DNA from: Leucoraja ocellata
Taxonomy: Eukaryota
DNA: 64,000 nucleotides
Assembly (NCBI GenBank): GCA_036785375.1
Contig: JAWMAR010001106.1
Location: forward strand, 124,001 to 188,000
Direction of reading: 5' to 3'
Both the position numbers and the translations under genes were made by a program. The notes under the pieces are model-generated. The model ran no database searches and was not told where the DNA came from. It was given only the letters and a program-made list of their open reading frames with translations. Below, piece by piece: positions 19,041 to 60,070 of this stretch (position 1 is its first letter; the number at the start of each line of letters is the position of its first letter).

Positions 19041-19094
19041 AGCCTTGGGATAAACTACGCCTACATAGGATGCACTACGCCTATATCCTATAAT

Positions 19095-23179: not shown

Positions 23180-24093
23180 TCAGCATAATTTAAATAACAT
23201 AACAATTAAATTCAGTGGATACTTTACCCCACTCATTAACTGCTCTTTGATTTTTTGCTGCGTCCCTGCATAAATGAATGGATTTATACATGAACTCAAA
23301 AGCTGAAGCATAGATCCGCTTTCTTCCAACGTAAAATTTGAATCATTGAAGTTAGAACCCGAGAAATATCGAACCTTCGCAATCCGAACATAAAGGAACG
23401 TGATGAAGAATAACGCCCAGGATAGGATGAAACCGCAAGATATTAACAGGAGCAAAACGATGGATTTTCTCCGGTTTTCCATTTCTGGATCACATTGATT
23501 ATCTCCGTTTCTGTTGGACATTAATCTCCTTCTAGTTCTCATTGCAGCTAGAATATGTCTGACGGTGAGTACATTGAAAAGTAGTATCAGAAAGAATGGA
23601 AGGCATGGAGTTAAGATGCGGTGAATCCAATCAAAGGCACCCCATGCAGGCAAGGTAGTGAAAGATAACTTTATTTGGCAGAGCCAGCGGACGCCGTCAA
23701 TTATAAATGAAGGCTCGTATATAAAATACCACGGAATGTTTCTGACACAACTCACTGCACAAATTGTTACGATGACAATGACCGCTGTTTTCTCAGTGCA
23801 GTACTTTGCTTTCAGCTTCTGGCAACAAATGGCTATATATCGGTCAAGTGTGAACACCACTGTCACCCAGACTGCACAGTCTTGGATTCCATAAATTAGA
23901 ACAAGGCTGACGCTGCAGACTGGAGTGATGGACATGAAGCTGAATGGGAAATATATACCTACCACTCGGTTAAATATCACAGCCGTGATGATGACTAAGA
24001 GATCGGTCACAGCCATAGCCACCAGATAGCAAGTGATGCATTTGGAAAGGCCGCACCTCCCTCGGGACAGTACCACGATCACTGCCAGATTAG
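23180..24093 (-). CDS. G2 exon 2: intact GPR139/GPR142-like orphan class A GPCR (327 aa with exon 1)
   Basis: 914-nt open exon after the TCTACAG acceptor. Motifs: ANL (N1.50), AMAVTDLL (D2.50), PVC (C3.25), TLDRY, ECL2 Cys, PCLPF, SW (W6.48), CINPFIY. Confidence 0.92.
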
Positions 24094-25013
24094 CTGTAGA
24101 TGAAAAATAGCAAGTGCTAATCAATGAATACATCCCAGACCTCAGACAACGAGGAACAAAAAATCTAAAATCTCATCAGGCTTGTCCGTGTCAGTAAACA
24201 ATGAATGCCATTAGCCTGATGAATCGCACCGACATTATTGCGCCCTCTCATCGATCAATTTCCACAACGGAATTTCTAACAGCAGTTTCAATACACTGCT
24301 GCCATGAGCTTAGTTCCGTTACTGGCGGAGTTGAAACGGAACAAGGCGGAAACAAATCGTTTCAGACATCGGAGATATCATATCAACGAATGTACAAAAT
24401 AATAGGGCCAATGGGACAACCATGCCATACGCGCATTGTAATAACAATTTTGCAATTCATAACCCCAATTCACAAAACCTGGTAGCAATACTATAAAACT
24501 AAGGATACAAATAGGAATAGAGCATGTTGGAAATACTTATCGGACGGGACAGCATTGGTGAAAGGCAAAATATGTAGGAAAGAACTTCAGATGCTGGTTG
24601 AAATCGAAGGTAGACGCAAAATGCTGGAGCGACTCAGCGGGCCAGGCAGCATCTCAGATCAGCATCAGAGAAATGCGACCTGACCCGCTGAGTTATTCCA
24701 GCATTTTGTGTCTACCCATTGGTGAAAGGCGATGTTTCTGGACTAGGAGTGAGAATGTCAACTCTTTTCCCTTTTTCGACAGAAGCTGATTGAACATGAA
24801 TATTTCCTTTATTATCTGTTCTTCGATTTAAGGATACACATCGGTAGTGGAACATTTCGGACGTCGTAATATATTAAATCGGGCGAAGGAAGTTCATATA
24901 AGCCGTAATAATTGTCGTTTCGCGAGTGGTGCATCACTTTCATTCAGAGAAGACGCTAGATTTACAATCGAACAGAGGATTTCCAGAGGAAATCTCTAAT
25001 AAAAACACTTTAC

Positions 25014-25083
25014 CCGTAACTCCAATAACTCCCAGGACTGGATAGTAAATGGCAAATAGGAGACCTTCCGGTATTCCATGCAT
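25014..25083 (-). CDS. G2 exon 1 (MHGIPEGLLFAIYYPVLGVIGVT, phase 1)
   Basis: ATG...ACG G|GTAAAG donor. Splices in frame to CT AAT CTG (Ala-Asn-Leu), completing TM1; 70+914=984 nt. Confidence 0.85.
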
Positions 25084-25486
25084 GTCTATCAGAATTGAGA
25101 ACACACCTAACACTGCATGCAAAATGATTTAACCTATAGTCCCCAAGACAACCTCCGGGGAGTTACTTGGGTGGCTTGCTCTGTTCCAATAATAGCATAA
25201 TTGAAGCAATCAGCTTTGCAAATGCCTCTCGGGATCATAGGAGGGCACAAGAGCCGGCATGTACAGTAACCTTGAGCAACACACGATGTGATGTGGCAAC
25301 TCAGCTGGTCAGGCAACTTCTGAAAAGGGAAACGAACAAATGGCATTTTTGGTCGGGACCTTTCTTCAGACTCAGACTGTTTCTTATGGTGGTAGTCGAC
25401 ACGCTGTATCTGAAGTGGGGTCCCGACCCTGAGCGTCATCTATCCTTGTTCTCCAGCGATCCTGTCTGATACGCTGAGTTACTCAG

Positions 25487-26008
25487 ATTCAGATTCAGAT
25501 TCACATTTATTGTCACATGCACCAATTGAGGTACAGGGGTATTTGAGTTACCATGCGACCATACAATTAAAAGAACTCAACACAATTGAAAAGAACGATA
25601 TAACTTAACATAAATACCCACCGCAGTGATCACAGTGATGGAAGGTAATACATTTCAGTCAGTCTTCCTCCTTTTGTTCACCCGTGTTTGGGGTCTTGCA
25701 GTTCGCAGGTTCCCGTGGTTGGAGCGCACGAAGACAGTCTCCTGCAAAGGCCACCAACTCCTTGATGTTAGGCCGCAGTGCGGACTGAGATACGATAGCG
25801 AACAAAATCGCATCTCCGTCGAGGTAATGCATTCGAAAAGGTTTTTCCCAACTCCACGCCCCCCTCCCCCCCCCCCCCCCCCCCCTTCCTCGCATATAAA
25901 ACAAGCTAAAGAACAATAAAAACATACATTTGACACATCCAAAAAAACAACAAAAAGGAAGGGGCAAACAGACTTTGCGAGGCAGCCATTACTGTCGCCA
26001 GCCGTTGG
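25487..26008 (-). mobile_element. Non-autonomous retroelement with (TGAATC)n tail, upstream of each GPCR (also 9385-9866, 36172-36677, 45110-45615, 60472-60970, 1-300; truncated at 54301-54353)
   Basis: Microsatellite tail of the same type as the Rex LINE, and a LINE-5'UTR-like head (GGCGACAGTAATGGCTGCCTCGC); no coding capacity. Confidence 0.55.
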
Positions 26009-26197
26009 AAAGATGTTGCTGAAATGTTCCTGGCATATTATGTGCAGTATACAGTATTATGTCGCCATATCGTGAGTAAAATGAATCCAACAAATCGTTA
26101 GGAATGTTTTTTGTCGCGTATTGTCCAGGATCGATTAATTACCTTTGTGGTGTCTCCCCTTCGAGTATCGAACATTTAATGTTTATCCTCAGTCTGA

Positions 26198-27265
26198 CAT
26201 TCTTCCTACCACTGACTCCCATGGCTATCTGGACTACACTTCTTCCCACCCTGCTTCCTGTAAGGACCCAATTTGCTCCGTCTACGGCATCTGCTCCCAG
26301 GATGAGAGGTTCCACACCAAGGCATCTGAAATGTCCTAATTCTTCAGGGAACCGGTGTTCCCCTCCCCCACCATAGACGAGGCTAGTACCAGGGTCTCTT
26401 GGGTCTCTTCGATACCTCGTAACTGTGCTCTCCCCCCCCCCCCTCGTAACAAGGCCAGGGTCCCTCTAGTCCTCACCTGTCGCCCCACTAGCCGTCACAT
26501 ACAACAAGTAATCCTCCGTCAGTTTCGCCACTTCCATCGTGGCCCCACCACTCGCCACACCTTCCCATCTCCCCCCACCCCCCCTGCCTTACGCAAAGAC
26601 CGCTCCGTCCGTTACTCCCTTGCAATTCTTCCCTCCCCTCCACTTACCACCACCTCCCCCAGCACTTTCCCTTGCAACCGCAAGAGATGCTACACTTGTC
26701 CCTTTACCTCCCCCCTCGACTCCATTCAAGGACCCAAGCAGTCGTTCCAGGTGCGACAGAAAATTACCTGCATCTCCTCCAACCTCATCTATTGCATCCG
26801 CTGCTCGAGATGTCAGCTGATCTACATCGGTGAGACCAAGCGGAGGCTTGCCGATCGTTTCGCCGAACACCGCCGTTCGGTCCGCATTAACGAACCTGAC
26901 CTCCCGGTGGCTCAGTACTTCAACTCCCCCTCCCATTCCGTATCCGACCTCCCTGCCCTGGACCTCCTCCACGGCCAGAGCGAGCACCACCGGAAATTGG
27001 ATGAATAGCACCGCATATTCCGCTTGGGGAGTCTGCATCCTGGTGGCATGAACATTGAATTGTCCCAATTTTGTTAGCCCTTGCTGTCTCCACCCCTTCC
27101 TATCTCTCCCTCAGCCCTCGGGCTCCTCCTCCTCCCTTTTCCTTTCTTCTCCCCGCCCCCCCCTCCCCCCCCCCACCCCCCATCAGTCTGAAGAAGGATT
27201 TCGGCCCGAAACGTTGCTATTTCCTTCGCTCCATAGATGCTGCTGTTTCTCCAGCAGTTTTGTGT
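26198..27265 (+). mobile_element. Penelope-like element 3' portion with GIY-YIG ORF 26355-27008
   Basis: CNRKRCYTCP, NLIYCIRCSRCQLIYIGETKRRLADRFAEH. Confidence 0.88.
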
Positions 27266-27329
27266 ATCTCTTACCATCAACTCGTCTCTATCTTATTCTA
27301 TTTGGGGCTCTGTTTTGTGTATGTTTTCA

Positions 27330-27557
27330 GGTAGTTATTTTGTAGGATCCAATTTCAATGACCCAAGCTTCATTCTACAGGAAAGTGGATACATGCTCCA
27401 GCTCTGGAGTTGTTGCACTAACACGTGCATTTATGCAGGGACCCAGAGGAAATTCAGAGAAGAGCTAAAGAAGGCTGTGATATATCCATTTGACTTAATA
27501 TGTAAGCTCTCGAAGAATTATTGTTGCAACAATTGGGCATCTTTGATACACTTATAG
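27330..27557 (+). pseudogene. Remnant (ECL3-TM7-C tail) of a divergent GPCR paralog in opposite orientation
   Basis: GSYFVGSNFNDPSFILQESGYMLQLWSCCTNTCIYAGTQRKFREELK aligns with RYFSGSNFNDSNFTLEESGFMLQLLSSCINPFIYAGTQQKIKEELM of the array genes. Confidence 0.85.
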
Positions 27558-28983
27558 AACATACAACGTTAACATATACAATATAACACAGTACATCTGT
27601 CACAAAAATTAAGCTAACAATATCATTGCCCTGCAGTGGTTGGTATCCCTCCAACACCCGACTGTTTAATGGTCGGTCTAAATGCCACTTAAATGTCGCT
27701 ACAGCATATGATCTCCAATCTACTTGCTTGGGGAATGGCCTACAAACCTCATGCCCCCCCCCCCCCCCCCCCCCCCCCACCCCCGCAAGTCATCTTAAAC
27801 CTCGGGCTTTGGAATTCATGTTTCCACCCTGGATTAAAATACTATGGCTATTACTTTATGCACGCCCTCATAATTTTGTTAATTTCGAGCAGCTAATCTC
27901 TCATCTTCCGTCGCTCCTGAGAAACAATCCATCCTTTTAGGCGTCAATAGCCAAGAGAGATTAATTGTCATCTGAAATGGGATCGGAACAATCAATGTCT
28001 TACTTTCTGCAGCTTAACTGGCACGTTAACGTATCCACAACACAAATAAGTATTGCAACGAAGAATAATACAATAAATGATTAGTTATCATTTACATTAC
28101 TTACACCTAACATTCTCAATCCGCGCAACATCCTAGCGACCTCTTTAGCATCTATCCCGAAGCCTTCACGTGCGTCCTATAATGTGACAATCTGAACTGT
28201 ACACAATACTCCACATCTGGTCGAATTAAAGTTTTCTTACAGCTGCAACATGACTTCCCAACTTTTATACCTCATCTCACCTCCTTTCTTTCGTCGTGTG
28301 GCTGCGTATCCAATTCTACTTACCTTACAACTTTAATTTATTTCAGTTCTCTCTAACACACTCTATCCTGCTACTAAATGTTTATACAGTAGAGGTATTG
28401 GTAAAATGCGCATCTCAGACATTGGTGATGAGCATGCGTGAAGTGCTTGTGTGGTTGGCAGAACATTTATCTACAAATACGTCAGCTGCAGGAACTCAAG
28501 ATTACTGCACTTTTTCCGCAAGGTCACCGCGACGAAACGTTTAGTCCTGCTGGAGAGAAAATAAAACTATGTATTTACTTTGTAAGTCATGATGTCAGCT
28601 TCCAGATTTTTTTTGCGCTGTACGTTGAAGAACGTAATTTAGGGACAATCATGGATTGTAACGACGGAAATATGGCTGAAGTGATGAGAGTTCTTGCTTC
28701 AGACATCTAGCGAAATTTCTTGGAAAATTTTCATTTCGACAAAGAAAGAAAACAAAGCATGGGAGTTCGGAGAAACCGTGTGGCATGATTAGGAGAAAGG
28801 ATGCAAAAGAAATGGTGAAGGGCGATGCTCTCAAAGTGCAGTAATTATATGTGTGTATATATAAGAAAGTTTAAACCCGAATATAATATATCAATATAAC
28901 TAAAAGCATTTGTCTTGTTTATGTGTGTGTGCCCACGATGTGTCAATCTGTTGTTCCTATCATATTAGATAGATAGATAGATG

Positions 28984-29015
<32 letters not shown>

Positions 29016-34059: not shown

Positions 34060-34973
34060 TCAGCATAATTTAAATAACATAACAATGCAATTCAGTGGAT
34101 ATTTTACGCCATTCATTAACTCCTCCTTGATTTTTTGCTGCGTTCCTGCATAAATGAATGGATTTATACATGAACTCAAAAGCTGAAGCATAAATCCGCT
34201 TTCTTCCAACGTAAAATTTGAATCATTGAAGTTAGAACCCGAGAAGTATCGAACCTTCGCAATGCGAACATAAAGAAATGTGATGAAGAATAACGCCCAG
34301 GACAGGATGAAACCGCAAGATATTAACAGCAGCAAAACGATGGATTTTCTCCGGTTTTCCATTTCTGGATCACATTGATTATCTCCGTTTCTGTTGGACA
34401 TTAATCTCCTTCTAGTTCTCATTGCAGCTAGAATATGTCTGACGGTGAGTACATTGAAAAGTAGTATCAGAAAGAATGGGAGGCATGGAGTTAAGATGCG
34501 GTGAATCCAATCAAAGGCACCCCATGCAGGCAAGGTAGTGAAAGATAACTTTACTTGGCAGAGCCAGCGGACGCCGTCAGTTATAAATGAAGGCTCGTAT
34601 GTAAAATACCATGGAATGTTTCTGACACAACTCACTGCACAAATTGTTACGATGACAATGACCGCTGTTTTCTCAGTGCAGTACTTTGCTTTCAGCTTCT
34701 GGCAACAAATGGCTATATATCGGTCAAGTGTGAACACCACTGTCACCCAGACTGCACAGTCCCGCATTCCATAAATTAGAACAAGGTGGACGCTGCAGAC
34801 TGGAGTGATAGACATGAAGCTGAATGGGAAATATATACCTACCACTCGGTTAAATATCACAGCCGTGATAATGACTAAGAGATCGGTCACAGCCATAGCC
34901 ACCAGATAGCAAGTGATGCACTTGGAAAGACCGCACCTTCCCCGGGACAGTACCACGATCACTGCCAGGTTAG
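34060..34973 (-). CDS. G3 exon 2: intact GPR139/GPR142-like orphan class A GPCR
   Basis: 914-nt open exon with the same motifs as G2. Distinct TM3 (CSVHLVLIYGMRD) and TM7 (ESGFML). Confidence 0.92.
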
Positions 34974-35690: not shown

Positions 35691-35760
35691 CCGTAACTCC
35701 AATAACTCCCAGGACTGGATAGTAAATGGCAAATAGGAGACCTTCCGGTATTCCATGCAT
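35691..35760 (-). CDS. G3 exon 1 (MHGIPEGLLFAIYYPVLGVIGVT)
   Basis: 70 nt, ATG start, GTAAAG donor; intron 717 nt. Confidence 0.85.
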
Positions 35761-36876: not shown

Positions 36877-37970
36877 ATTCCTCCTACCACTGACTCCCAT
36901 GGCTATCTGGACTACACTTCTTCCCACCCTGCTTCCTGTAAGGACCCAATTTGCTCCGTCTACCGCATCTGCTCCCAGGATGAGAGGTTGCACACCAGGG
37001 CATCTGAAATGTCCTAATTCTTCGGGGAACCGGGGTTCCCCTCCCCCACCATAGACGAGGCTCGCACCAGGGTCTCTTGGGTCTCTTCGATACCTCCTAA
37101 CAGTGCTCTCCCCCCCCCCCCCCCCCACTCGCAACAAGGACAGGGTCCCTGTAGTTCTCACCTGTCACCCCACTAGCCTTCACATACAACAAGTAATCCT
37201 CCGTCAGTTTCGGCACTTTCAACGTGACCCCACCACTCGCCACATCTTCCCATTTCCCCCTCCCGCCCCCGCTGCCTTCCGCAAAGACCGCTCCCTCCGT
37301 AACTCCCTTGCAATTCTTCCCTTCCCTCCACTTACCACCCCCTCCCCCGGCACTTTCCCTTGCAACCGCAAGAGATGCTACACTTGTCCCTTTACCTCCC
37401 CCCTCGACTCCAATCAAGGGAGCATTCGTTCCAGGTGCGACAGAAAATCACCTGCATGTCCTCCAACTTCATGTATTGCATCCGCTGCTGGAGATGTCAG
37501 CTGCTCTACATCGGTGAGACCAGGCGGAGGCTTGGCGATCGTTTCGCCGAACACCTCCGCTCGGTCCGCATTAACGAACCTGACCTTCCGGTGGCTCAGC
37601 ACTTCAACTCCCCCTCCCATTCCGTATCCGATCTCCCTGTCCTGGGCCTCCTCCACGGCCAGAGCGAGCACCACCGGAAATTGGAGGAATAGCACCGCAT
37701 ATTCCGCTTGGGGAGTCTGCATCCTGGTGGCACGAACATTGAATTCTCCCAATTTTGTTAGCCCTTGCTGTCTCCTCCCCTTCCTATCTCTCTCTCAGCC
37801 CTCGGGCTCCTCCTCCTCCCGTTTCCTTTCTTCTCCCCGCATCCCCCCCCCCCCCGCCCCCCCCCCCCCCCCCATCCCGCATCAGTCTGATGAAGGGTTT
37901 CGGCCCGAAACGTTGCCTATTTGGCGAAACAGCAGCCAGATGCTGCGGTTTCTCCAGCATTTTTGTGTAT
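36877..37970 (+). mobile_element. Penelope-like element 3' portion
   Basis: Paralogous copy of 26198-27265 with a frameshifted GIY-YIG region. Confidence 0.85.
37884..37920 (+). ncRNA. Minimal hammerhead-ribozyme-like motif in the PLE tail (variants at 11428-11465 and 27185-27220)
   Basis: CTGATGA-A-GGG(TTTCGG)CCC-GAAAC-GTT: conserved core boxes around a helix II hairpin. PLEs are known to carry minimal hammerheads. Confidence 0.55.
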
Positions 37971-40900
37971 CTCCTACCATCAAGTCGTCTCGATCTTACT
38001 CCATTTGGGCTCTGTTTTGTGTCTGTTTTCAGATTGAGACCAACAACCATCGTTCCACAAACAGTGACTCACATTTCACTACTTAGTCCCTCATTATATA
38101 TTTACCAGTGCACATGGTATGGTGGCCTATTCATAAATTCATACATTTTGTCGCAGTGATAAAAGTGACTAGTTGCGCCTCCAGAGCCAATGAAATCCCG
38201 ATAATCAGCGGAAAGGCCGGATGTTCTGTTTTTGTTTTCCTGGATCCCGATGAAGGAATTGCTAGGGTATAATTCGCAGTGGTTCCTTAGATGGAAGGAG
38301 GTAATGCGGTGATGGGATTGGTAAATAATATTACAAGTAGACCTCCGTGATATTTTGTTCCAATTTCCATTAGGGTGTGGAAAGAGGGCAATCACAACAA
38401 TTTGCATGGACATTTTCAAGCGGTTAATCCGCTCCCCCCTCCCCAAAAATGTAATCCCGGGTCCTTTTAATAGCTTCTGTTTTGATAACCACTTCACAGC
38501 CTTCTGTTAGATTGCCCTACCCTTCACTACTTCTCTGGTGCAGGAGACTCAACTTGCGATTCAATTGTAAGATTTGTCTGCCCGATGCAGAAACAATCTC
38601 CTACGTCGCTACATTTACGAAACCCGGCGAGGTACGTCATCCTATCCGTTACGCAACAACTTATTTTTTAATCTTTAAATTTTATATTTGTAGTAGTGTG
38701 ATTTTTGATATTGGATATCTCCATACCTCCAGATTCACGGCCACTTTCTTCCCATCTATTATCAGGCAACTGAACCACCATACCGCAATCTGAGAGCAGT
38801 CCAGAAGTATTATCTTCCACAACCACCACCAATGTCCAACATGCACTCAAATTCATTTAAACCATCTCCGCCACCTCCCTCCCCTTTCTTGATCTCACCG
38901 TCGCCATTACAGGAGATAGACTATGGACTGGCATCTATTACAAACCCACTGATTCCCACAACTGTCTCGACTACATTTCTTCCCAACCTGCTTCCTATAA
39001 ATACTTTATCTCCTTTTCCCCGTTTCTCCGTCTATGCCGCATCAGCGCCCAATACATAATAGGACACCTGATGAGTCCTCAATTCTTTAGTGAACAGGGA
39101 ACGCCTCTTCCATCATAGACGAGACCCTCGCACGTGTGTCCTCGCTGCTCGGCAAATCCGCCCTTGCCCCCCTCGCCGCCGTAGTCCTAACAGTTTCAGA
39201 GTCCCTCTTGGCCTTGCATCTCACCCCATCAGCCGTCGCGTACAACACAGAATCCTCCGACTTTAAAGCCACCTCCAAATGGATCCTATTTCAATCTCCA
39301 CCCTTTTCCAACTTCCGCAGAAACATTTCCCTCCGCAACTCCCTGGTTAATTCTCCCTTCCCACTCAAACTACGCCTATATCCTATAATTCTATTAAAAG
39401 TAAAGGGGAACAGGTTATTTTAATGGTGGTATGGTCGTCTACGCGTGGAGCCATACGAGATGGACGAGGTCTTAAATGAATACCTCTCATCTTCATTTAC
39501 CATGGGGAAGTTTATACAAGGGAATTGGAGGAATAGTATAGGGACGTCCAGAAGCACACGGCCATTACGGCGAGGGGGCGCTGGCAGTGTTGAGGAACGA
39601 ATACGTGGATAACGGCCTGCCGAGATATACTATGAGGTTCCGTGGGGAGGAAGTATAGAAATGCCGGGGTCCTGGCAGAGGTGATTTGTATCTTCCTTCG
39701 CCAGAGGTGACGTCCTGGGCTATTGGAGCGTGGATAGCATTTGGCCTATATTGGGGAAGGACTGAAAGACAATCTGCGGATCCACCTTCTCGAGAGCGTA
39801 GTAAATGAATGTGAGAGGAATTTGACAGGCATGATCTATTTGCACTTATAACAGTCAGGACTAATTGGGAATAACCAGTGGCCAATGCAGTTCTTTGGAC
39901 GTTGTTTACATGGACTTTAGCAACGCATTTGTCAAGTTCCTTAAACGTAGGCTAAGATCTGGGATTCGGTGAGAGCTAACCAAATGGGTACATAATTGGC
40001 TTGATGGTGGGTATCAGAAGGTGGTAGAGGAGAGTTGTTATCCAGGTAGTTTTCCAGATTGGAGGTTTATGGCAGGATCGGAGCTGGATCCGCTTGTGAT
40101 GCCATGTTGATGCCATGTATGGTAATCATTCGGATTAGAAAACACTTCGCCGTATCAAAATTTTAACAGGCGACAATCAATGAATTTGTGAGGCGACTGC
40201 AATGGTAGCATTTCATTCGAGAGGGCTAGAATACAATAATAGAGATGTATTGCTGAGGCTTTATCAAGCACAGTATTGTGAGTAGTTTTGTGCCAAATCT
40301 GAGGAAGGTTGTGCTGGCGTTGGAGACGGTCCCAGCAGGTTTACCAGAATGATTCCAGGAATAATTGTGTTAACATATGATGAGCGTTTATAGGCACTAA
40401 GGCCTGTAATCTGGCGTTTAAAAGGATGTGACGGGACCTCATAAAAACTTAGGAATGAGTAAAATGCCGGGTAGAATGAATGTGGAGAGGATGTTTCCAA
40501 CAGTGGGAGAGTTGATGACCAGAGGTCATATACTCAGATTAAAAGGATGTGCCTTTAGAAAGGAGGTAAAATAGAATTTATTTCGTTAGAAGGTGGTGTG
40601 TCTGTGGAATTCATTACCACAGACGGCAGTGGAGGCCATCAATGACAGATTATTGATTAGTTAGGTTGGCAGAAGCTATGGGACGAAAGCGGGAGAATTG
40701 GGTTGAGAGCAAAAATTCTGTTCTTTGAACGTATGAAGGTATGAGTTGAGTGGCGGAGAGGAATGAATGCCTAAACCACAACTAGATCGGCACCAATTGG
40801 GGAATTGGATCATAGAATAACAGATGCAGAGGAACTCGAACGAGCATGAATTTATGCAGTTGAGGAAGTTAACCCAAGGCATGACGTACACAATAAATGG

Positions 40901-42943: not shown

Positions 42944-43857
42944 TCAGCATAATTTAAATAACATAACAATGAAATTCAGTGGATATTTTACCCCACTCAT
43001 TAACTGCTCTTTGATTTTTTGCTGCGTTCCTGCATAAATGAATGGATTTATACATGAACTCAAAAGCTGAAGCATAGATCCGGTTTCTTCCAACGCAAAA
43101 TTTGAATCATTGAAGTTAGAACCCGAGAAATATCGAACCTTCGCAATGCGAACATAAAGAAATGTGATGAAAACTAACGCCCATGACAGGATGAAACCGC
43201 AAGATATTAACAGGAGCAAAACGATGGATTTTCTCCGGTTTTCCATTTCTGGATCACATTGATTATCTCCGTTTCTGTAGGACATTAATCTCCTTCGAGT
43301 TCTCATTGCAGCTACAATATGTCTGACGGTGAGTACATTGAAAAGTAGTATCAGAAAGAATGGAAGGCATGGAGTTAAGATGCGGTGAATACAATCAAAG
43401 GCACCCCATGCAGGCAAGGTAGTGAAAGATAACTTTATTTGGCAGAGCCAGCGGACGCCGTCAGTTATAAATGAAGGCTCGTATATAAAATACCATGGAA
43501 TGTTTCTGACACAACTCACTGCACAAATTGTTACGATGACAATGACCGCTGTTTTCTCAGTGCAGTACTTAGCTTTCAGCTTCTGGCAACAAATGGCTAT
43601 ATATCGGTCAAGTGTGAACACCACTGTCACCCAGACTGCACAGTCTTGGATTCCATAAATTAGAGCAAGGCTGACGCTGCAGACTGGATTGATGGACATG
43701 AAGCTGAATGGGAAATATATACGTACCACTCGGTTAAATATCACAGCCGTGATAATGACTAAGAGATCGGTCACAGCCATAGCCACCAGGTAGCAAGTGA
43801 TGCATTTGGAAAGGCCGCACCTACCTTGGGACAGTACCACGATCACTGCCAGATTAG
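42944..43857 (-). CDS. G4 exon 2: intact GPR139/GPR142-like orphan class A GPCR
   Basis: 914-nt open exon with DRY and NPFIY; TM6 reads SWALVF. Confidence 0.92.
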
Positions 43858-44639: not shown

Positions 44640-44709
44640 CCGTAACTCCAATAACTCCCAGGACTGGATAGTAAATGGCAAATAGGAGACCTTCCGGTAT
44701 TCCATCCAT
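44640..44709 (-). CDS. G4 exon 1 (MDGIPEGLLFAIYYPVLGVIGVT)
   Basis: 70 nt, ATG start, GTAAAG donor; intron 782 nt. Confidence 0.85.

Positions 44710-47214: not shown

Positions 47215-47300
<86 letters not shown>
47215..47300 (+). repeat. (GATA)n microsatellite (shorter copy at 28965-29014)
   Basis: Direct reading of the sequence. Confidence 0.95.
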
Positions 47301-50300
47301 TTACTTCATCCCCTTATTCAGGGGAAATTCAGGTGTCCTTGCAGCACACTAATAAAAATATTCCAAACGCTAGTCCACAGCCTTCCCATTTTCACATACC
47401 CTACTCCCATTTTTCCCGTCTTGGCAATACACATCTTCCTGTCGCATTCCCACATATAGTTCCGAAGTTATTAATCCATTAAATTTTCAAAACAGCCCAA
47501 ACAAACTCACCATTTCGGAAAAAAAGTGACGCGACAATGAACTCGCAAGGCAGGACGGGACACTCCGGGAGGGAGGGGCACTCAAGCGCTCGCGGTGAAC
47601 GAGGAGTGGTGGCAGCTGCCGGCGCTCGACGCCCGGCAACAGTCGCCCGACGCCAGATTACCTGGTGGGGAGGGTGGTGTCTCGGGCCGTGCCCGGAGGG
47701 TGGGCCTGGGCTGGAGCCGATCCTGGTGCTGGAGCTGGAGTGAGGGCTTCGGATGGGGCCATGACCGGGGCTGACGGCTGGAGTTTACAGCCAGGGCCAG
47801 CCCGAGTTCGAGAACCAGGCCGAGTTCCTTTCTATTAAAATCTTTTTATTTATTTCCCCCCCCCCCAAAAAAAAAGCCAAAATAAAACATAAAAAACAGA
47901 CCAAATAGAATAATGATAAACATAACAATGGTATTGATACATAGGGATCAGTGTTACATTAATAACAGGCATAGCCTAATATGAGACCAGTGTCAAAATA
48001 CACAATGAATATAGACCTCCCGGTTTCTATGTAAATATAGTTAGATCTTTAAAATGAAACTTATAAATGTTAAAAAAAAAACCACACAGATAAAAAGACA
48101 AATAGAAAAAGAAAAAATGAAAGAAACAAACAACCCCCCCCCCCCTGAACTAAAGAAAGAAAAAAAAGAGAAGATTTGATAATAATAAAATACGAATAAA
48201 AATAAAATAAATAAAAACCAAAGCAAAGCTAAACCAAATCTGAACTGAAAATTTCAACAATGTAGGTCTGTTTGTCGTCAAATCCGTTCCACCCTATAGA
48301 GGTAAAATATATTTTTATAACGGTTAAAGAGGGAGCAATTTATGTTGTATGAAAATGTTCAATAAATTTTCCCCAAGTCTTAGCAAATTTAACCAAGGGT
48401 TCAACAGTGTCACTCCTGATTTTTTTTATAAACTTAAACATGATATCGTTTCCGAATACCACTGGAGTGTGGTCGGAAGGTTGGAGTCTTTCCATTTAAA
48501 TGAAATAGATCTTCTGGTGATTAATGTTGTAAAAGCAATCAACCGATGGTCGGGACGGGACAAATGAATAGAATCTAACATTGGTGGCCCAAAATTTACA
48601 GGTGTCGGGGCCCTTCTTCATACTCTAAGTCATAACTTCGACGTCTGAGTACGAATAAAGGTCTCGTTTCTAAATTCGTCTGCATATTCCCTCCACAGAT
48701 ACTGCCCGACTCATAGAGTTCCACCAGCATTTGTTCTTTTGTTCAAGATTCAAACATCTGGAGTTTTATTTTGTTTCCACGCGACAATGTGTGCGGTTCA
48801 ATCCACGAATGTGGAGAGGATGTTTCCACCAATGAGAGAATTGACCAGAGGCCATGTACTCAGATTAAAAGGATGTGCCTTTAGAAAGGAGATGAAAAGG
48901 AATTTATATCGTCAGAGGGCGGGGTGTCAGTGGAATGTATTATACCAAACGGCCGTGGAGGCCATCAATTACAGATTATTGATTAGTAAGTTTGGCAGGG
49001 GCTATGGGGCGAAAGCGGGAGAATTGGGTTGAGAGCAAATATTCTGTTCCTTGAAGGTGTGGCGCAGAGGAATGAATGCCTAAACCACAACAAGATCTTC
49101 ACCAATTGGGGAATTGGATCATAGGATAACAGATGGAGCGGGACTCGTACGAGCATGAAGTTATGCAGTTGAGGAAGTTAACCCAAGGCATGAAGTACAC
49201 AATAAATGGCAGGGCCCATGAGAATGTTGTCGAGTTTTGACCGGAGATTCCATTATCCTATCGTCCATATTTCTTTTATCTAGCCAATCTCAGCAAATCT
49301 AAGGTGCCTTCCGTAATATGATATTTCATTTCCCACAATAATTAATAAATACTGTCAGATGAAACCAGCTCAGTTTATGTGAAGGCTGTGTGTCCGTGCT
49401 GTTTAGTTCTTTGAGTCCAGTAGCAAGTGCAGCGGATAAATGTAAAACGATAATGTTGATACATTTGGATTTTCTGAACACATCTGATAGATTGCAGCAT
49501 CAAACATGATTATGGAAAATAAATGCTCGTCGTATACGAGATAACCTACTCGGATTAGTGGAGTTTGGCTACCTGACAAGAAATGGACCAGAGCATAATT
49601 TGGTCTATTTTCCGATGGATAAATATACCAAGTGATGTGCCAGGGGTATAAGTGCATAAGTCTCAATATTATGTAACTTACACAAATGACTTAAATGAAA
49701 GCTGCAAATGAGTGGTTGCTAAATTTGCCGATTGCCAATGACAGGTCGGAAACTTAGTTGCAAAGAGGACAACAGACAAAAGATAGTTAGATTTTAGGAT
49801 GACAAATTAAAATAAGAGTAAACTGTGAGATATAACCGAACTTTGAGATGGAAAGTAACCTGCCGCCTTTACACGTGGTTCGCTGGGAATTAGTTTGCAA
49901 GCAGGCCAAACATAGTATTATTGGTTATTGTGAGTAAATGTAATGCTTTTGTTACATCGAGCATTGATAAGAAAAGGTGTGATTTACAGTACTGATCACC
50001 TTTTTTAAGAATGCATGTAGACGTGTTGGAGGTACTTCAGAAAACATTTGCAGGGCATACACACTGAAGTCGAAAACGTAATAATAGACGATGCGGGATA
50101 AGACCTTGTATCCGGAGTGAAAGGCCTTTATTTACAAGGATGAAGAGTGTTTTATTGTCATATGCTCCTAAACTGAACAACGATACTCGTGCTTGCAGCA
50201 GCACAACATAATTTTAACATAGTAATCAGTAAACATCGTAATAAACAACACAATTATGTAAACGAACAATAATAGCGCAAAGACAACAACAACAAAAAAT

Positions 50301-51362
50301 AATGCCGTCTTTTCATGTACTTCGGAGCTTATTTAGTTTAGTTTAGGGATACAGCGCGGAATCAGGTCCTTCGGCCAACAGAGTCCGCACCATCCAGCGA
50401 TCCCCGCGTATTAACACTATCCTACACACACGAGGACCAATTTACAATTTCCACAAACAGCAAACTAATTAACCTGTATACCTCTACGTCTTCGGAGTGT
50501 GGAGAGAAACCGAAGATCTCGGAGAAAACCCACGCGTTCACGGAGAAAACGTGGAAACTCCGCACATACAGCACCCGTCGCCGCGATCGACACCGGGTCT
50601 CCGGCGCTGCGCTTATTTGGCAGCAGTGTTTAATGATCTGATCGTAGAATGAAGGAAACTGCTCCCGCCCCGAGACGTTACAGTTTTGAAGTTCCTATGC
50701 TTTCTTCCACATGGCAGGAATTAAATAAGCGAGTGGCCAGTGTGGAGCGGGCCTCTGATCATGCGGGCTGCATTATAGAAACATAGAAATTACATGCAGG
50801 AGTAGGCCATTCGGCCCTTCGAGCCTGCACCGCCATTCAATATGATCATGGCTGATCATCCAACTCAGTATCCCGTACCTGCCTTCTCTCCATACCCCCT
50901 GATCCCCTTAGCCACAAGGACCACATCTAACTCCCTCTTAAATATAGCCAATGAACTGGCCTCAACTACCCTCTGTGGCAGAGATTATCAAGGACCAAGA
51001 AAGGAGTCGTCAGTACTTCAGTTCGCACTTTCTCGCATTTCAATACACTCTTTACCCCATTCTGCTCTTTTGCATTTGCTGCATTTATCTGTCATTGCTT
51101 GATATTGTTTAGTCTGTGAGCTGCATGTCAATAAGCAATTCATTGTAATCTCGCGTGACAACAATAATTTAATCTTGTGCAATTTGATTTTCATCTAGTG
51201 CTGTGTTTTTTTTCTCAATGAGCCGTGGGTCTTTGAAAATATCTTCTTAAAATGATACTTAAAGCAAATAGTAAATATTATTTTTTGAATATTAAAGGTG
51301 GAGGGAGGTGGATGATTAATACAAAGTTTATGAATAATTACAGGGAAAAGCGGAAAAACTGA

Positions 51363-51887
51363 AGAACATTCTTGCCATAGAGGGTGTACAGAGTATGTTC
51401 CCCACACTGATTCCTAGTATGTCAGGACTTTCATATGAAGAATGACTGGGTAGAGTCGGCTTGTACTCGCTAGAAGTTTGAAGATTGAGGGCGAATCTTA
51501 TAGAAACTTATAATATTCTTAAGACGTTGGACAGGCTAGATGCAGGATGGTTGTTCCCGATGTTGGGGAAGTCCAGAACAAGGGGTCACAGTTTAATGAT
51601 AAAGGGGAAATATATTAGGACCGAGATGAGAAAATCATTTTTTACACAGAGAGTGGCGAATCTCTGGAATTCTCTGCCACAGAATGTAGTTGAGGCCAGT
51701 TCGTTGGCTATATTTAAGAAGGAGTTAGATGAGGCCCTTGTGGCTAAAGGGATCAGGGAGTATGGAGAGAAGGCAGGTACAGGATACCGAGTTGGATGAT
51801 CAGCCATGATCATATTGAATGGCGGGCGGGCTCGAACGGCCGAATGGCCTACTCCTGCACCTATTTTTCTATGTTTCTGTGATTCTA
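51363..51887 (+). mobile_element. CR1 LINE 3' fragment (duplicate of 6246-6770)
   Basis: Same sequence at offset 45117. Confidence 0.88.
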
Positions 51888-52215
51888 TTACAGATAGATC
51901 AACGGTGATACTGCTTGACGGGGGAAACTTGGTGATTGAATGGCGTTCTCTTGCTCCGAGTTCATCTGTCTGTACATGGTGAACGAGGCATGAGACATAC
52001 ATTTCCGAGCCCGTGTCAATCTCAATTTGTTGGCCAGTGTGTACTTTGCCTCTAAACAATCAAGTGCTCGATTTCCAACGTCTCCATGCCCGTCCATGTA
52101 TGTGAATTCACTTTATATGGAACATCTGAGATTGAGTTAATTCACGATTCGAACTGGAGACAGTAACTGGATCAACGGATATAATACATCATAGGATGAT
52201 TAAATGGAAATCAAG

Positions 52216-53097
52216 TCAGCATAATTTAAATAACATAACAATGCAATTCAGTGGATATTTTACCCCATTCATTAACTCCTCTTTGATTTTTTGCTGCGTT
52301 CCTGCATAAATGAATGGATTTATACATGAACGCAAAAGCTGAAGCATAAATCCGCTTTCTTCCAACGTAAAATTTGAATCATTGAAGTTAGAACCCGAGA
52401 AATATCGAACCTTCGCAATCCGAACATAAAGAAATGTGATGAAAACTAACACCCAGGACAGGATGGAACCGCAAGATATTAACAGGAGCAAAATGATGGA
52501 TTTTCTCCGGTTTTCCATTTCTGGGTCACATTGATTATCTCCGTTTCTGTTGGACATTAATCTCCTTCTAGAGAACATTGAATAGTAGTATCAGAAAGAA
52601 TGGAAGGCATGGAGTTATGATGCGGTGAATCCATTCACAGGCACCCCATGCAGGCAAGGTAGTGAAAGATAACTTTAATTTGCAGAACCAGCGGACGCCG
52701 TCAGTTATAAATGAAGGCTCGTATATAAAATACCATGGAATGTTTCTGACACAACTCACTGCACAAATTGTTACGATGACAATGACCGCTTTTTTCTCAG
52801 TGCAGTACTTTGCTTTCAGCTTCTGGAAACAAATGGCTATATATCGGTCAAGTGTGAACATCACTGTCACCCAGACTGCACAGTCTTAGATTCCATAAAT
52901 TAGAACAAGGCTGACGCTGCAGACTGGAGTGATGGACATGAAGCTGAATGGGAAATATATACCTACCACTCGGTTAAATATCACAGCCGTGATAATGACT
53001 AAGAGATCGGTCACAGCCATAGCCACCAGGTAGCAAGTGATGCATTTGGAAAGGCCGCATCTTCCCAGGGACAGTACCACAATCACTGCCAGATTAG
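52216..53097 (-). pseudogene. G5: GPCR pseudogene, near-identical to G1, exon 1 deleted
   Basis: Same TAA stop and 32-nt deletion as G1. A 199-nt deletion at 53983/53984 (TTAC microhomology) removes exon 1. Confidence 0.9.
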
Positions 53098-56000
53098 CTG
53101 TAGATGAAAAATAGCAAGTGCTAGTCAATGAATACATCCCAGACCTCAAACAACGGGGAACAAAAAAGCTAAAATCTCACCAGGTCTGTCCGTGTCAGTA
53201 AACAATGAACACCTTTAGCCTGATGTATCGCACCGACATTATTGCTCCCTCTCATCGATCCATTTCCACAACGGAATTTCTAACATCAGTTTCTATACAA
53301 TGCTGCCATGAGCTTTGTTCCGTTACTGGCGGAGTTGAAACGAAACAAGGCGGAAACAAATCGTTTCAGATATCGTAGATATCATATCAAAGAATGTACA
53401 AAGTAATAGGGCCAATAGGACAACCATGCCATATACGCATTGTAATAACTATTTTGCAATTCATAGCCCCAATTAACAAAACCTGGTAGCAATACTATAA
53501 AACTAAGGATACAAATGGGAATAGAGCATGTTGGAAATACTTATCCGACGGTACAGCATTGGTGAAAGGACAAAATGTGTAGGAAATAACTTCAGATGCT
53601 GGTTTAAATCGAAGGTAGTCGCAAAATGCTGGAGTGACTGAGCGGGTCAGGCAGCATCTCAGATCAGCATCAGAGACATGCGTCCTGACCCGCTGAGTTA
53701 CTCCAGCATTTTGTGTCTACCCATTGGTGAAAGGCGACGTTTCTGGACTGAGATCCTTCCTTGAAAGTGAGAATGTCAACTATTTTCCCTGTTTCGACAG
53801 AAGCTGATTGAACATGATTATTTGCTTTATTTTCTGTTCTTCGATTTAATGATACACATCGGTAGTGGAACATTTCGGACGTCGTAATATATTAAATCGG
53901 GCGAAGGAAGTTAATATAAGCCGTAATAATCATCGTTTCGCGAGTGGGGCATCACTTTCATTCAGAGAGGACGCTAGATTTACTTGGGTGGCTTGCTCTG
54001 TTAAAATAATAGCAGAATTGAAGCAATCAGCTTTGCAAATGCCTCTCGGGATCATAGCGGGACACAAGAGACGGCATGTACAGTAACCTTGAGCAACACA
54101 CGATGTGATGTGGCAACTCAGCTGGTCAGGCACCTTTTGAAAAGGGAAACAGACAAATGGCGTTTTTGGTCCGGACCTTTCTTCAGACTCAGACTGTTTC
54201 TTAGAGTGGTAATAGACACGCTGTATCTGAAGTGGGGTCCCGACCATGAGCGTCACCTACCCTTGTTCTCCAGCGATGCTGTCTGATACGCTGAGTTACT
54301 CAGATTCAGATTCAGATTCACATTTATTGTCACATGCACCGATTGAGGTACAGTATTTGTAGTAGTGTGATTTTTGATATTGTATATCTCCATACCTCCA
54401 GATTCACGGCCACTTTCGTCCCATCTGTTATCAGGCAACTGAACCATCCTACCGCAACCTGCGAGCAGTCCAGAAGTATTATCTACCACAACCACCACCA
54501 ATATCCAACATGCACTCAAATTCATTTAAACCATCTCCGCCACCTCCCTCCCCTTTCTTGATCTCACCGCCGCCATTACAGGAGATAGACTATGGACTGG
54601 CATCTATTACAAACCCACTGATTCCCACAACTGTCTCGACTACATTTCTTCTCACCCTGCTTCCTATAAATACTTTATCTCCTTTTCCCCGTTTCTCCGT
54701 CTATGCCGCATCTGCGCCCAAGACATAATAGGGCACCTGATGAGTCCTCAATTCTTTAGTGAACAGGGAACGCCTCTTCCATCATAGACGAGACCCTCGC
54801 ACGTGTATCCTCGTTGCTCTGCAAATCCGCCCTTGCCCCCCTCGCCGCCCCTAGTCCTAACAGTTTTAGAGTCCATCTTGGCCTTGCATCTCACCCCATC
54901 GGCCGTCGCGTACAACACGGAATCCTCCGACTTTTACGCCACCTCCAACTGGATCCTAGCACGAGTCACCTATTTCAATCTCCACCCCTTTCCAACTTCC
55001 GCAGAGACACTTCTCTCCGCAACTCCCTGGTTAATCCTCCCTTCCCACTCAAACTACGCCTATATCCTATAATTATATTAAAAGTAAAGGGGAACTGTTT
55101 TTTTTAATGGTGGTATGGTCGTCCACGCGTGGAGCCATAAGAGATGGACGAGGTCTTAAATGAATACCTCTCATCTTCATTTACCATGGGGAAGTTTATA
55201 CAAGGGAATTGGAGGAATAGTATAGGGACGTCCAGAAGCACAGGCCATTACGGCGAGGGGGTGCCGGCAGTGTTGAGGAACGAATACGTGGATAACGGCC
55301 TGCAGAGATATACCGTGAGGTTCCGTGGAGAGGAAGTATAGAAATGCCGGGAGCATGGCAGAGGTGATTTGTATCTTCCTTCGCCAGAGGTGACGTCCTC
55401 GGCTATTGGAGCGTGGATAGCATTTGGCCTATATTGGGGAAGGACTGAAAGACAATCTGCGGATCGACCTTCTCGAGAGCGTAGTAAATGAATGTGAGAG
55501 GAATTTGACAGGCATGATCTATTTGCACTTATAACAGTCAGGACTAATTGGGAATAGCCAGTGACCAATGCAGTTCTTTGGACATTGTTTATGTGGACTT
55601 TAGCAACTCATTTGTCAAGTTCCTTAAACGTAGGCTAAGATCTGGGATTCGGTGAGAAGTAACCAAATGGGTACATAATTGGCTTGATGGTGGGTATCAG
55701 AAGGTGGTAGAGGAGAGTTGTTATCCAGGTAGTTTTCCAGATTGGAGGTTTATGGCAGGATCGGAGCTGGATCCGCTAGTGATGCCATGTTGATGCCATG
55801 TATGTTAATCATTCGGATTAGAAAACACTTCGCCGTATCAGAATTTTAACAGACGACAATCAATGAGTTTGTGAGGCGACTGCAATTGTAGCATTTCATT
55901 CGAGAGGGCTAGAATACAATAATAGAGATGTATTGCTGAGGCTTTATCAAGCACAGTATTGTGAGTAGTTTTGTGCCAAATCTGAGGAAGGCTGTGCTGG

Positions 56001-58369
56001 CGTTGGAGACGATCCCAGCAGGTTTACCAGAATGATTCCAGGAATAATTGTGTTAACATATGTTGAGCGTTTATAGGCACTAAGGCCTGTAATCTGGCGT
56101 TTAAAAGGATGTGACGGGACCTCATAAAGATTTAGGAATGAGTAAAATGCCCGGTAGAATGAATGTGGAGAGGATGTTTCCAACAGTGGGAGAGTTGATG
56201 ACCAGAGGCCATATACTCAGATTAAAAGGATGTGCCTTTAGAAAGGAGGTAAAAAGGAATTTATTTCGTCAGAAGGTGGTGTGTCTGTGGAATGCATTAC
56301 CACAGACGGCAGTGGATGCCATCAATGACAGATTATTGATTAGTTAGGATGGCAGGAGCTATGGGACGAAAGCGGGAGAATTGGGTTGAGAGCAAAAATT
56401 CTGTTCTTTGAACGTATAAATGTATGAGTGGCGTGGCGGAGAGGAATGAATGCCTAAACCACAACAAGATCTGCACCAATTGGTGAATTGGATCATAGAA
56501 TAACAGATGGAGAACGAGCATGAATTTATGCAGTTGAGGAAGTTAACCCAAGGCATAAAGTACACAATACATGGCAGGGCCCAGGAGAATGTATCCTAAA
56601 TTTGCCGATTGCCAATGACAGGTGGGAAACGTACTTGCAAAGAAGACAAAAGGCGGCTTTGATAGTTAGATTTTAGGATGACAAATTAAAATTTGAGTAA
56701 ACTGTGCGATATAACCGAATTTTGAGATGCAAAGCAACCTGCCGCCTTTACACTTGTTTTGTTGGGAATTAGTTTGCAAGCAGCCAAAACATAATATTAT
56801 TGGTTATTGTGAGCAAATGTAATGCTTTTGTTACATCGAGCATTGATAAGAAAAGGTGTGAAGTACAGCACTGATCACCTTTTTTTTAAGAATGCATGTA
56901 GACGTGTTGGTGGTACTTCAGAAAACACTTGCAGGGCATACACACGAAAGTCGAAAACGTCAGAAAAGACGGTGCAGTGATAAGACTTTGTATCAGGAGT
57001 GAAAGGCCTTTATTTACGAGTGAAGAGTGAGTGTTTTATTGTCAGATGCGCCGAAACTGAACAAAGATACTCGTGCTTGCAGCAGCACAACATAATGTAA
57101 ACACAGTACTCAGTAAACATCGTAATGAACAACACAATTATGTAAACGAACAATAATATAGCAAAGCCAACAAAAAAAAAGACAATGCCGCATTTTCATG
57201 TACTTCGGAGCTTATTTAATTTAGTTTAGTTTAGTTTAGGGATACAGCGCGGAAACAGGTCCTTCGGCTCACCGAGTCAGCACCAACCAGCGATCCCCGC
57301 GTATTAACACTATCCTACACACGAGGAACAATTTACAATTTACAATTTACACATACACCAAGCTAATTAACCTGTATACCTCTACGTCTTCGGAGTGTGG
57401 GGAGAAACCGAAGATCTCGGGAAATACCCACGCGTTCACGGAGAGAACGTAGAAACTCCATACAGACAGCACCCGTCGCCGCGATCGACATCGGGTCTCC
57501 GGTGCTGCTCTTATTTGGGAGCAGTGTTTCATAATCTGAAAGAAGTTGCTCCCGAACCTAGACGTTACAGTTTTGAAGTTCCTATGCTTTCTTCCTAATG
57601 GCAGGAATTAAATAAGAGCGTGGCCAGTGTGGAGTGGGCCTCTGATCATATTGGCTGCTTTTTCAAGAAACAAGAAAGGAGTCGTCAGTACTTCAGTTCG
57701 CACTTTTCCGGAATGCAATACAATCTTTACCCCATTCTGTTCTTTTGCATTTGCTGTATTTATCTGTCATTGCTTGATATTGTTTAGTATGTGAGCTGCA
57801 TGTCAATAAGCAATTCATTGTAATCTCGCGTTACGACAATAATCGAATATTCTGTAATTTGATTTTCATCTGGTGATGTGTTTTTTTTTCTCAGCGAGTC
57901 GTGGGTCTTTGAAAATATCTTCTTAAAATTATACTTAAAGCAAATATTAAATATTATTTTTTGAATGATAAAGGTGGAGGTAGGTGGATGATTAATACAC
58001 AGTTGATGAATATTTACAGGAAAAAGCGGAAAAACGGATCTTACAGTTAGATCAACGGTGATACTGCTTGACGGGCGAATCTCAGTCGATTGAATGGCGT
58101 TCTCTTGCTCCGAGTTCGTCTCTCTTTGCATGGTGAACGAGGCATGGGACATACATTTCAGAGTCCGCGTATAATCTCAAGTTATTGGCCAGGGTGCCTT
58201 TTGCCTCTAAACAATCAAGTGCTCGATTTCCAATGTCTCCATGCCGTCCATATCTGTAAATTCACTTTATATGGAACACCTGAGATTGAGTTAATGCATG
58301 ATTCGAAATGGAGACATTACCTGGATCAACGGATATAATACACCATAGGGTGATTAAATGGAAATCAAG

Positions 58370-60070
58370 TCAGCATTATTTAAATAACATAACAATGAAA
58401 TTCAGTGGATGTTTTACCCCACTCATTAACTGCTCTTTGATTTTTTGTTGCGTTCCTGCATAAATGAATGGATTTATACATGAACTCAAAAGCTGAAGCA
58501 TATATCCGCTTTCTTCCAACGTAAAATTTGAATCATTGAAGTTAGAACCCGAGAAATATCGAACATTCGCAATCCGAACTTAAAGGAACGTGACGAAAGG
58601 TAACGCCCAGGACAGGATGAAACCGCAAGATATTAACAGGAGCAAAACAATGGATTTTCTCCGGTTTTCCATTTCTGGATCACATTGATTATCTCCGTTT
58701 CTGTTGGACATTAATCTCCTTCTAGTTCTCATTGCAGCTAGAATATGTCTGACGGTGAGTACATTGAAAAGTAGTATCAGAAAGAATGGAAGGCATGGAG
58801 TTAAGATGCGGTGAATCCAATCAAAGGCACCCCATGCAGGCACGGTAGTGAAAGATAACTTTATTTGGCAGATCCAGCGGACGCCGTCAATTATAAATGA
58901 AGGCTCGTATGTAAAATGCCTTGGAATGTTTCTGACACAACTCACTGCACAGATTGTTACGATGACAATGACCGCTGTTTTCTCAGTGCAGTACTTTGCT
59001 TTCAGCTTCTGGCAACAAATGGCTATATATCGGTCAAGTGTGAACACCACTGTCACCCAGACTGCACAGTCTTGGATTCCATCAATTAGAACAAAGCTGA
59101 CGCTGCAGACTGGAGTGATGGACATGAAGCTGAATGGGAAATATATACCTACCACTCGGTTAAATATCACAGCCGTGATAATGACTAAGAGATCGGTCAC
59201 AGCCATAGCCACCAGGTAGCAAGTGATGCATTTGGAAAGGCCGCACCTACCTCGGGACAGTACCACGATCACAGCCAGATTAGCTGTAGATGAAAAATCG
59301 CAAGTGCTAGTCAATGAATACATTCCAGACCTCAAACAACGAGGAACAAAAAATCTAAAATCTCATCAGGTCTGTCCGTGTCAGTAAACCATGAATACCA
59401 TTAGCCTGATGAATCGCACCGACATTATTGCGCCCTCTCATCGATCCATTTCCACAACGGAATTTCTAACAGCAGTTTCAATACACTTAAGGATACAAAT
59501 AGGAATAGAGCATGTTGGAAATACTTATCCGACGGGACAGCATTGGTGAAAGGACAAAATATGTAGGAAAGAACTACAGATGCTGGTTTAAATCGAAGGT
59601 AGACGCATAATGGTGGAGCGACTCAGCGGGCCAGGCAGCATCTCAGATCAGCATCAGAGACATGCGTCCTGACCCGCTGAGTTACTCCAGCATTTTGTGT
59701 CTACCCATTGGTGAAAGGCGATGTTGCTGGACTAGGAGTGAGAATGTCAACTCTTTTCCCTTTTTCGACAGAAGCTGATTGAACATGAATATTTCCTTTA
59801 TTTTCTGTTCTTCGATTTAATGATACACATCGGTAGTAGAACATTTCTGACGTCGTAATATATTAAATCGGGCGAAGGAACTTCATATAAGCCGTAATAA
59901 TCATCGTTTCGCGAGAGGTGCATCACTTTCATTCAGAGAAGACGCTAGATTCACAATCGAACATTATAACCAGAGGAAATCTCTAATAAAAACACTTTAC
60001 CCGTAACTCCAATAACTCCCAGGACTGGATAGTAAATGGCAAATAGGAGACCTTCCGGTATTCCATGCAT
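58370..60070 (-). pseudogene. G6: GPCR pseudogene or truncated gene (exon 1 60001-60070, exon 2 58370-59283)
   Basis: Full-length 914-nt exon 2, but a TAT>TAA stop at 58580-58582 (end of TM6) removes TM7. A second TAA lies two codons before the ancestral stop. Confidence 0.88.

Follow-up and report, generated by a model that had tools for sequence, protein, structure and literature searches.

GPR139 and GPR142 are vertebrate class A G-protein-coupled receptors (GPCRs) of orphan status that are activated by aromatic amino acids. The contacts of the GPR139 ligand include F109, R244 and N271 (PMC8807744). The two receptors have been placed as sister to the protostome RFamide/Wamide receptors (PMC8557429), and the orphans GPR210A/B lie near them in bony fishes (PMC6504862). 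Here we analyse a 64,000-nucleotide stretch of contig JAWMAR010001106.1 of Leucoraja ocellata (hereafter the window), which contains six minus-strand copies (G1-G6) of one class A GPCR gene in repeat units of 9-11 kb. The gene has two exons, of 70 and 914 nt, separated by a GT-AG intron of 717-932 nt, and encodes 327 amino acids. It is intact in G2, G3 and G4 and broken in the other three of the six copies (G1, G5 and G6). We consider the locus to be part of a young tandem array in which the ligand pocket was diversified by selection and gene conversion behind a constant signalling face, within a large repertoire for varied ligands (probability roughly 0.65).

Relationship to GPR139, GPR142 and other receptor repertoires

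Membership in class A is indicated by a match to Pfam 7tm_1 (E=5e-22) and by the presence of seven helices, N1.50, D2.50, DRY, W6.48, NPxxY, and C3.25 with the cysteine of the second extracellular loop (ECL2). The family lacks P6.50 and W4.50. A preliminary description of the window had used the same class A numbering with C3.25 in register, and this numbering is correct and agrees with the alignment to GPR139. In a fold search, a predicted model of exon 2 (pLDDT 68.5) matches class A structures without singling out a family. GPR139 is the best solved-structure match of the family profile, although its margin over TRHR is less than 2 bits and a single-sequence search ranked TRHR above GPR139. 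In the genome itself, the next-best matches to GPR139 after GPR142 are genes of the family. The intron position is also held in common: a phase-1 splice acceptor AG lies two bases before N1.50 in transmembrane helix 1 (TM1) at the GPR139, GPR142 and family loci (exon 1 of GPR139 and GPR142 was not located).

In a midpoint-rooted tree of 48 rows, the genome's own GPR139 and GPR142 form a pair at 100/100 outside the family clade. The family does not group with GPR139, and orthology to it is not indicated. It groups instead with salamander orphans (e.g., XP_069092602) at 100/99 and with coelacanth (XP_005988539) and teleost orphans at 99/97, all bony-vertebrate sequences labelled "probable GPR139", of which the search gave few representatives. 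These orphans are possibly the GPR210A/B of PMC6504862. The nearest named relative in the tree is from a ray.

The differences from GPR139 and GPR142 are substantial. Identity is about 25% over the N-terminal half, and each of the two receptors has one locus where the family has hundreds. The family keeps C3.25 and the ECL2 cysteines, both of which are missing from GPR139/142, and it lacks E3.32, R6.51 and P6.50 and, in the subfamily of G1-G6, N7.39. Positions 3.33, 5.42, 6.51 and 7.39 align to F109, H187, R244 and N271 of GPR139. The GPR139 ligand anchors E3.32, R6.51 and N7.39 are not kept in the array subfamily: among its intact paralogs 3.32 is Ile in 39/41, 6.51 is V/S/F/P/T and 7.39 is F/S/Y.

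Tandem arrays, birth-and-death, a very short N-terminus and a variable pocket above a conserved intracellular face are features that the family has in common with the OR, V2R, TAAR and TAS2R repertoires. It represents a different lineage, however, as it matches Pfam 7tm_1 only. FPR and MRGPR are further expanded immune/sensory GPCR repertoires. Atlas look-alikes of the family include clusters resembling FMRFamide receptors, with Srw on 17-42% of members. Relative to the protostome RFamide/Wamide supergroup (MIP, proctolin and FMRFamide type 1 receptors) and the srw-type receptors, the family is a separate expansion.

Diversity and selection in the array subfamily

We identified 49 copies of the G1-G6 subfamily by genome search, 41 intact and eight broken, on two contigs: C1106, which holds the window, and C128. 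The relationship between the two is not one of simple colinearity between haplotypes, and a close mate is missing for many genes. Because the contigs may be divergent haplotypes or two arrays, each was also analysed alone. Copy L048 (C1106:231110) carries six indels of one base each, which may be errors in the consensus and not real decay.

All of the residues given in the preliminary description were found at the positions stated there, e.g., Ser at 3.28 in G2 and G4 (AGC) and His in G3 (CAC), and the IQ/MR difference at 3.35-3.36. The three intact genes do have three different pocket combinations. Asp at 3.33 is found in pseudogene G6, and Tyr occupies this position in 41/41 intact paralogs. 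At 6.51, F (G2, G3), V (G1, G4, G5) and P (G6) are all present; as the exon 2s of G1 and G5 are identical, the two count once. Ser, Phe and Tyr are all present at 7.39. The Tyr of the plus-strand remnant, however, is no data point for this subfamily, since the remnant is 97-99% identical to a different one. All four readings around the ECL2 cysteine (LCQI, LCQV, FCKL and ICQI) were found, but Ile161 occurs in 0/41 and Phe161 in 1/41 intact paralogs. TM2, which had been regarded as almost invariant, varies across the array at 2.47, 2.56, 2.57 and 2.65.

Across the 41 intact genes there are 31 distinct pocket types, and the residues at 3.28, 6.51 and 7.39 (counts in Table 1) occur in many pairings. 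Position 3.36 is Q in 35 and R in six, and 6.50 is Leu in all. Intracellular and microswitch positions are nearly invariant.

We defined the pocket as 39 sites, a generic class A list fixed before enrichment was tested; it contains the five sites of the preliminary description (3.28, 3.33, 3.36, 6.51 and 7.39). A second set comprised 17 contact sites from the GPR139 paper (PMC8807744). The claim that the differences among G1-G6 map onto the pocket holds for 14 of the 40 variable exon-2 sites (p=1e-4); the remaining sites had gone unmentioned. Among the intact G2, G3 and G4, six of the 20 amino-acid-variable exon-2 sites are in the 39-site set (p=0.03).

For 40 non-identical genes (the eight broken copies, outgroup L046 and duplicate L006 left out), synonymous diversity (piS) is 0.056, equal to that of the introns. 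The ratio of nonsynonymous to synonymous diversity (piN/piS) is 1.62 in the pocket, 1.54 at the GPR139 contact sites, 1.16 in the extracellular half and 0.86 at other extracellular sites. In the intracellular half it falls to 0.34, and in the intracellular loops to 0.17. At the five sites named earlier, the ratio is 4.9 among the 37 genes that lie outside the window; these genes are related by descent to those inside it. With the set of 40 paralogs the variable sites are not randomly placed: the pocket is enriched against all sites (p<0.0002) and against the extracellular half (p=0.013). Variation clusters on the extracellular and pocket side.

Codon site models (our own implementation, with fixed FastTree branch proportions and a grid over omega) place about 7-9% of sites at omega 3.4-3.7, with twice the log-likelihood difference (2dL) of 44.3 for M1a/M2a and 46.2 for M8a/M8. 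The M8a/M8 comparison is significant for each contig alone (17.7 and 33.7), and 2dL stays at 34-40 when separate trees are used for two to four segments. Sites with dN/dS>1 are thus found, led by 6.51, 7.33 and 3.28. Fifteen sites have a posterior of at least 0.8, 13 of them extracellular and seven in the pocket. Diversifying selection had been proposed for five sites; 3.28, 6.51 and 7.39 carry signal, whereas 3.33 is invariant and 3.36 shows one Q/R change in 6/41. About half of the top selected sites are not part of the canonical pocket (7.33, 4.63, 4.47, 3.30, 5.36 and 6.49).

The changes at 6.51, 7.39 and 3.28 are not CpG changes, which rules out CpG hypermutation as the source of variation at these three positions. 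It may contribute at 6.49 and residue 163.

In a second subfamily, which is also young and comprises 15 genes sharing about 61% identity with G2, amino-acid changes occur at 25 sites, including 6.51 (V/A/M), 4.60 (W/R), 4.63, 4.47, 3.29 and 3.30. This subfamily varies at six of the 15 top sites of the first (p=0.0006; p=0.003 among variable sites). In a deep set of 95 of 120 database homologs, with 25 outside 300-345 aa left out, the six pocket positions 3.29, the ECL2 residue after Cys, 5.42, 4.60, 6.51 and 3.32 are in the top 13 of 301 sites. The frameshifted L112 and L114 are left out of a 48-gene set. Another large and very young subfamily, with a shortened ECL2, is present on several small contigs (L138-L140, L143 and L144) and would suit a third replicate.

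Gene conversion, relaxed constraint and other explanations

The copies are mosaic. Simulations without recombination give a site incompatibility of 0.08-0.10 and the observed value is 0.197, so that homoplasy is about twice the no-recombination level. The pairwise homoplasy index (PHI) did not reach significance (p=0.10), and the case for mosaicism is built on the level of incompatibility. Conversion inflates the likelihood-ratio statistic in null simulations (median 10-16, up to 75), whereas null runs without conversion gave at most 5.4 (16 runs). The nominal codon-model p of 1e-10 was rejected as overstated after these simulations.

Several results weigh against selection on the pocket as a whole. 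With conversion tuned to the observed incompatibility, null simulations reached a 2dL of 44.3 or more in 2/45 runs, so an honest p is about 0.04. The bootstrap confidence interval of the pocket ratio is 0.98-2.55, and the ratio falls to 1.32 when the five previously named sites are removed. For the GPR139 contact sites, p is 0.056 in the comparison with introns and 0.16 in that with the extracellular half, and the whole extracellular half is not above the neutral level of the introns (p=0.26). Taken alone, the second subfamily has no pocket enrichment (5/25, p=0.21). The comparison of pocket with other extracellular transmembrane sites gives p=0.07 for the 95 homologs, and 0.81 and 0.08 for two deep sets from the genome itself. 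Combined, the array, second-subfamily and deep-set tests do not bear out a pocket-wide selection effect; positive selection at a few sites is likely.

The foremost rival explanation is that the genes are functional but redundant, that the extracellular half drifts neutrally under relaxed constraint and that conversion mimics selection at a few sites. The near-neutral extracellular half, the incompatibility level and the inflated test statistic all fit this explanation, and fully neutral simulations reach the observed extracellular value in 51/450 runs. The pocket itself is harder to account for. In simulations with a neutral pocket plus conversion (UPGMA, i.e., average-linkage, tree and uniform mutation rates), the pocket ratio and the top-five value were each reached in 1/900 runs and the top heterozygosity in 6/900. 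Diversity at zero-fold degenerate pocket sites (0.083, 25 genes) exceeds that of the genes' own introns (0.056, p=0.018) and fourfold degenerate sites (0.055, p=0.021); the intron test leaves out L018 and L027, in which exon 1 is beyond the retrieved flank. The pocket is also more variable than the rest of the extracellular half, as given above. The evidence for a pocket above the neutral rate is of moderate strength (p about 0.02-0.04 in conservative tests), and we regard relaxed constraint with conversion as unlikely, though the most credible of the rivals.

Selection could also be real but act on activation, delivery to the surface or shielding, not on the choice of ligand. Pro at 6.51, for example, could re-kink TM6, which lacks P6.50 (Leu in all intact paralogs), and 7.33 could toggle a glycan. 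The prominence of 7.33, 4.47, 6.49, 3.30 and 4.63 outside the pocket is consistent with this. So is the N-F-T sequon above TM7 (window 23330-23338, G2 residues 276-278), kept in 25/41 intact paralogs and lost in 16/41 through six sequence variants, with 7.33 among the top selected sites. However, 6.51 and 7.39 align with the GPR139 ligand contacts R244 and N271, and the intracellular and microswitch positions are nearly invariant. We consider this explanation improbable.

Least probable is passive amplification, in which unequal crossing-over would multiply repeat-rich units whether or not they function, most copies being silent with a pattern inherited from few functional ancestors: the units do hold transposon pieces, half of the window copies are broken, five pseudogenes show a pocket ratio (1.60) like that of intact genes and part of the family count is assembly duplication, but the low ratio in the intracellular loops is seen among copies whose silent sites differ by only about 5%, most copies have no internal break (41/49 in the array, 18/20 sampled and 132/134 family-type matches, in the part examined), and the parental pattern would persist in young pseudogenes anyway.

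Tandem duplication gives rise to copies of about 9-11 kb, some of which have broken down (8/49), and the intracellular half is under purifying selection. Under the preferred explanation of a selected pocket in a converting array, gene conversion would shuffle residues among the copies, and selection would keep several residues at 3.28, 6.51, 7.39 and ECL2. To judge from sequence, differing residues in the pocket would change ligand preference and thus alter specificity. The repertoire would sense outside molecules through a common G-protein output. The predicted ligands are probably peptides or amino-acid derivatives, because of the kinship with GPR139/142 and the conserved polar pocket residues D3.37, E7.36 and Q7.42.

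Organization of the window

The features of the window are collected in Table 1. A 6.7-kb block is duplicated at 99.5% identity (window 2220-8866 and 47319-53983) and holds the already broken G1/G5; thus, pseudogenes are copied along with the array.

Table 1. Coordinates of receptor gene features in the window; counts are for 41 intact paralogs, and five-residue strings give positions 3.28/3.33/3.36/6.51/7.39.
Feature	Position	Strand	Comment
G2 exon 1	25014..25083	-	70 nt, ATG to phase-1 GT donor
G2 exon 2	23180..24093	-	intact; 327-aa class A GPCR; S/Y/Q/F/S
G2 codon 3.28	23906..23908	-	S26 H11 and 4 singletons
G2 codon 6.51	23408..23410	-	V13 S12 F8 P6 T2; most variable site
G2 codon 7.33	23330..23332	-	T25 A7 P4 R4 K1; Thr of N-F-T sequon
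G2 codon 7.39	23312..23314	-	F20 S14 Y7
G3 exon 1	35691..35760	-	
G3 exon 2	34060..34973	-	intact; H/Y/R/F/F
G4 exon 1	44640..44709	-	
G4 exon 2	42944..43857	-	intact; S/Y/Q/V/S
G1 pseudogene	7099..8982 (exon 1 8913-8982, exon 2 7099-7980)	-	stop at 3.36, 32-nt deletion
G5 pseudogene	52216..53097	-	exon 2 identical to G1 exon 2 (stop at 3.36, 32-nt deletion); exon 1 deleted
G6 pseudogene	58370..60070 (exon 1 60001-60070, exon 2 58370-59283)	-	stop at 6.57; sole source of 3.33 Asp
3' remnant of another subfamily's gene (TM7 and tail)	27330..27530	+	97-99% identical to that subfamily

The repeat units contain pieces of long interspersed elements (LINE), GIY-YIG elements and pieces resembling short interspersed elements (SINE). 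An open 500-aa LINE reverse-transcriptase frame (RVT_1 plus an ALKBH8_N-type tail) is inserted in one unit (window 17622-19124, minus strand). At 26340-27008 (plus strand) lies a decayed element that matches GIY-YIG weakly, without reaching the Pfam cut-off. It recurs in most units, and we take it to be Penelope-like. Frames resembling it are also present at 10337-10870 and 37055-38086.

The G2 intron includes a highly repeated, transcribed SINE-like stretch (window ~24560-24720), matched by thousands of RNA reads from another organism label. Four RNA runs under such a label contain mostly intron-repeat reads and few partial TM3 reads, and were not used as evidence. In sequence runs aligned to the contig, variants at 6.51 and 7.39 appear in other runs; depth was not used for copy number.

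Family size and significance

Two unrelated family motifs have 1,476 and 1,677 exact matches genome-wide, and none in reversed controls. The first 100 listed matches already span many contigs and dense arrays. Twenty matches sampled from these 100 (on large contigs, not at random) are all family members with 42-54% identity, 18 of them with an open exon 2. Each motif finds only 54 of 70 known loci, so the motif counts are minimum values. Both GPR139 and GPR142 are present as two copies on a single contig (L131-L136; C465 and C123), with 98.6-98.8% identity including flanks, probably through assembly duplication; RAG2 is single in the assembly. Because the two receptors are assembled twice, we halved the family counts for the lower bound, and estimate that each haploid set has at least about 800 loci, possibly reaching or passing 1,000.

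Sharks and rays are the source of every one of the best 120 of 1,645 database matches, most of which carry the RefSeq name "probable GPR139". We found no description of the family in the literature searched (mostly without subscription papers), and nothing on it in the accessible parts of PMC13113109 and PMC2817399. A search with PF13853 at E<=1e-30, intended to count odorant receptors (ORs), gave 0 matches and is uninformative.

Cartilaginous fishes have been described as having a paucity of GPCRs and no MAS1 relatives (PMC8455134). In olfaction they have been described as relying nearly exclusively on a few dozen V2Rs, which are treated as the main olfactory family; a catshark is described with two canonical OR genes, six to seven OR-like genes and about 32-35 V2R/V2R-like genes (PMC11979771). 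At least ~800 mostly open loci under the automatic label "probable GPR139" would change this GPCR-poor picture.

We offer tentatively, and as somewhat less than an even chance, the broader proposal that sharks and rays hold an overlooked third lineage related to GPR139/142, of about 1,000 genes, still diversifying by selection and conversion and serving as main peptide/amino-acid sensors in the nose and skin or in immune cells. If true, the repertoire would be the size of mammalian odorant-receptor sets, and would make up for the scarcity of ORs and the lack of MAS-related receptors. Pocket variability is in itself an ordinary feature of receptor repertoires; here it counts as evidence for a functional family with varied ligands. 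The young array includes receptors that are nearly identical except for two or three residues of the pocket, which should make deorphanisation and structure-function tests simple. The finding matters more for how large and apparently obscure the family is than for the pocket pattern.

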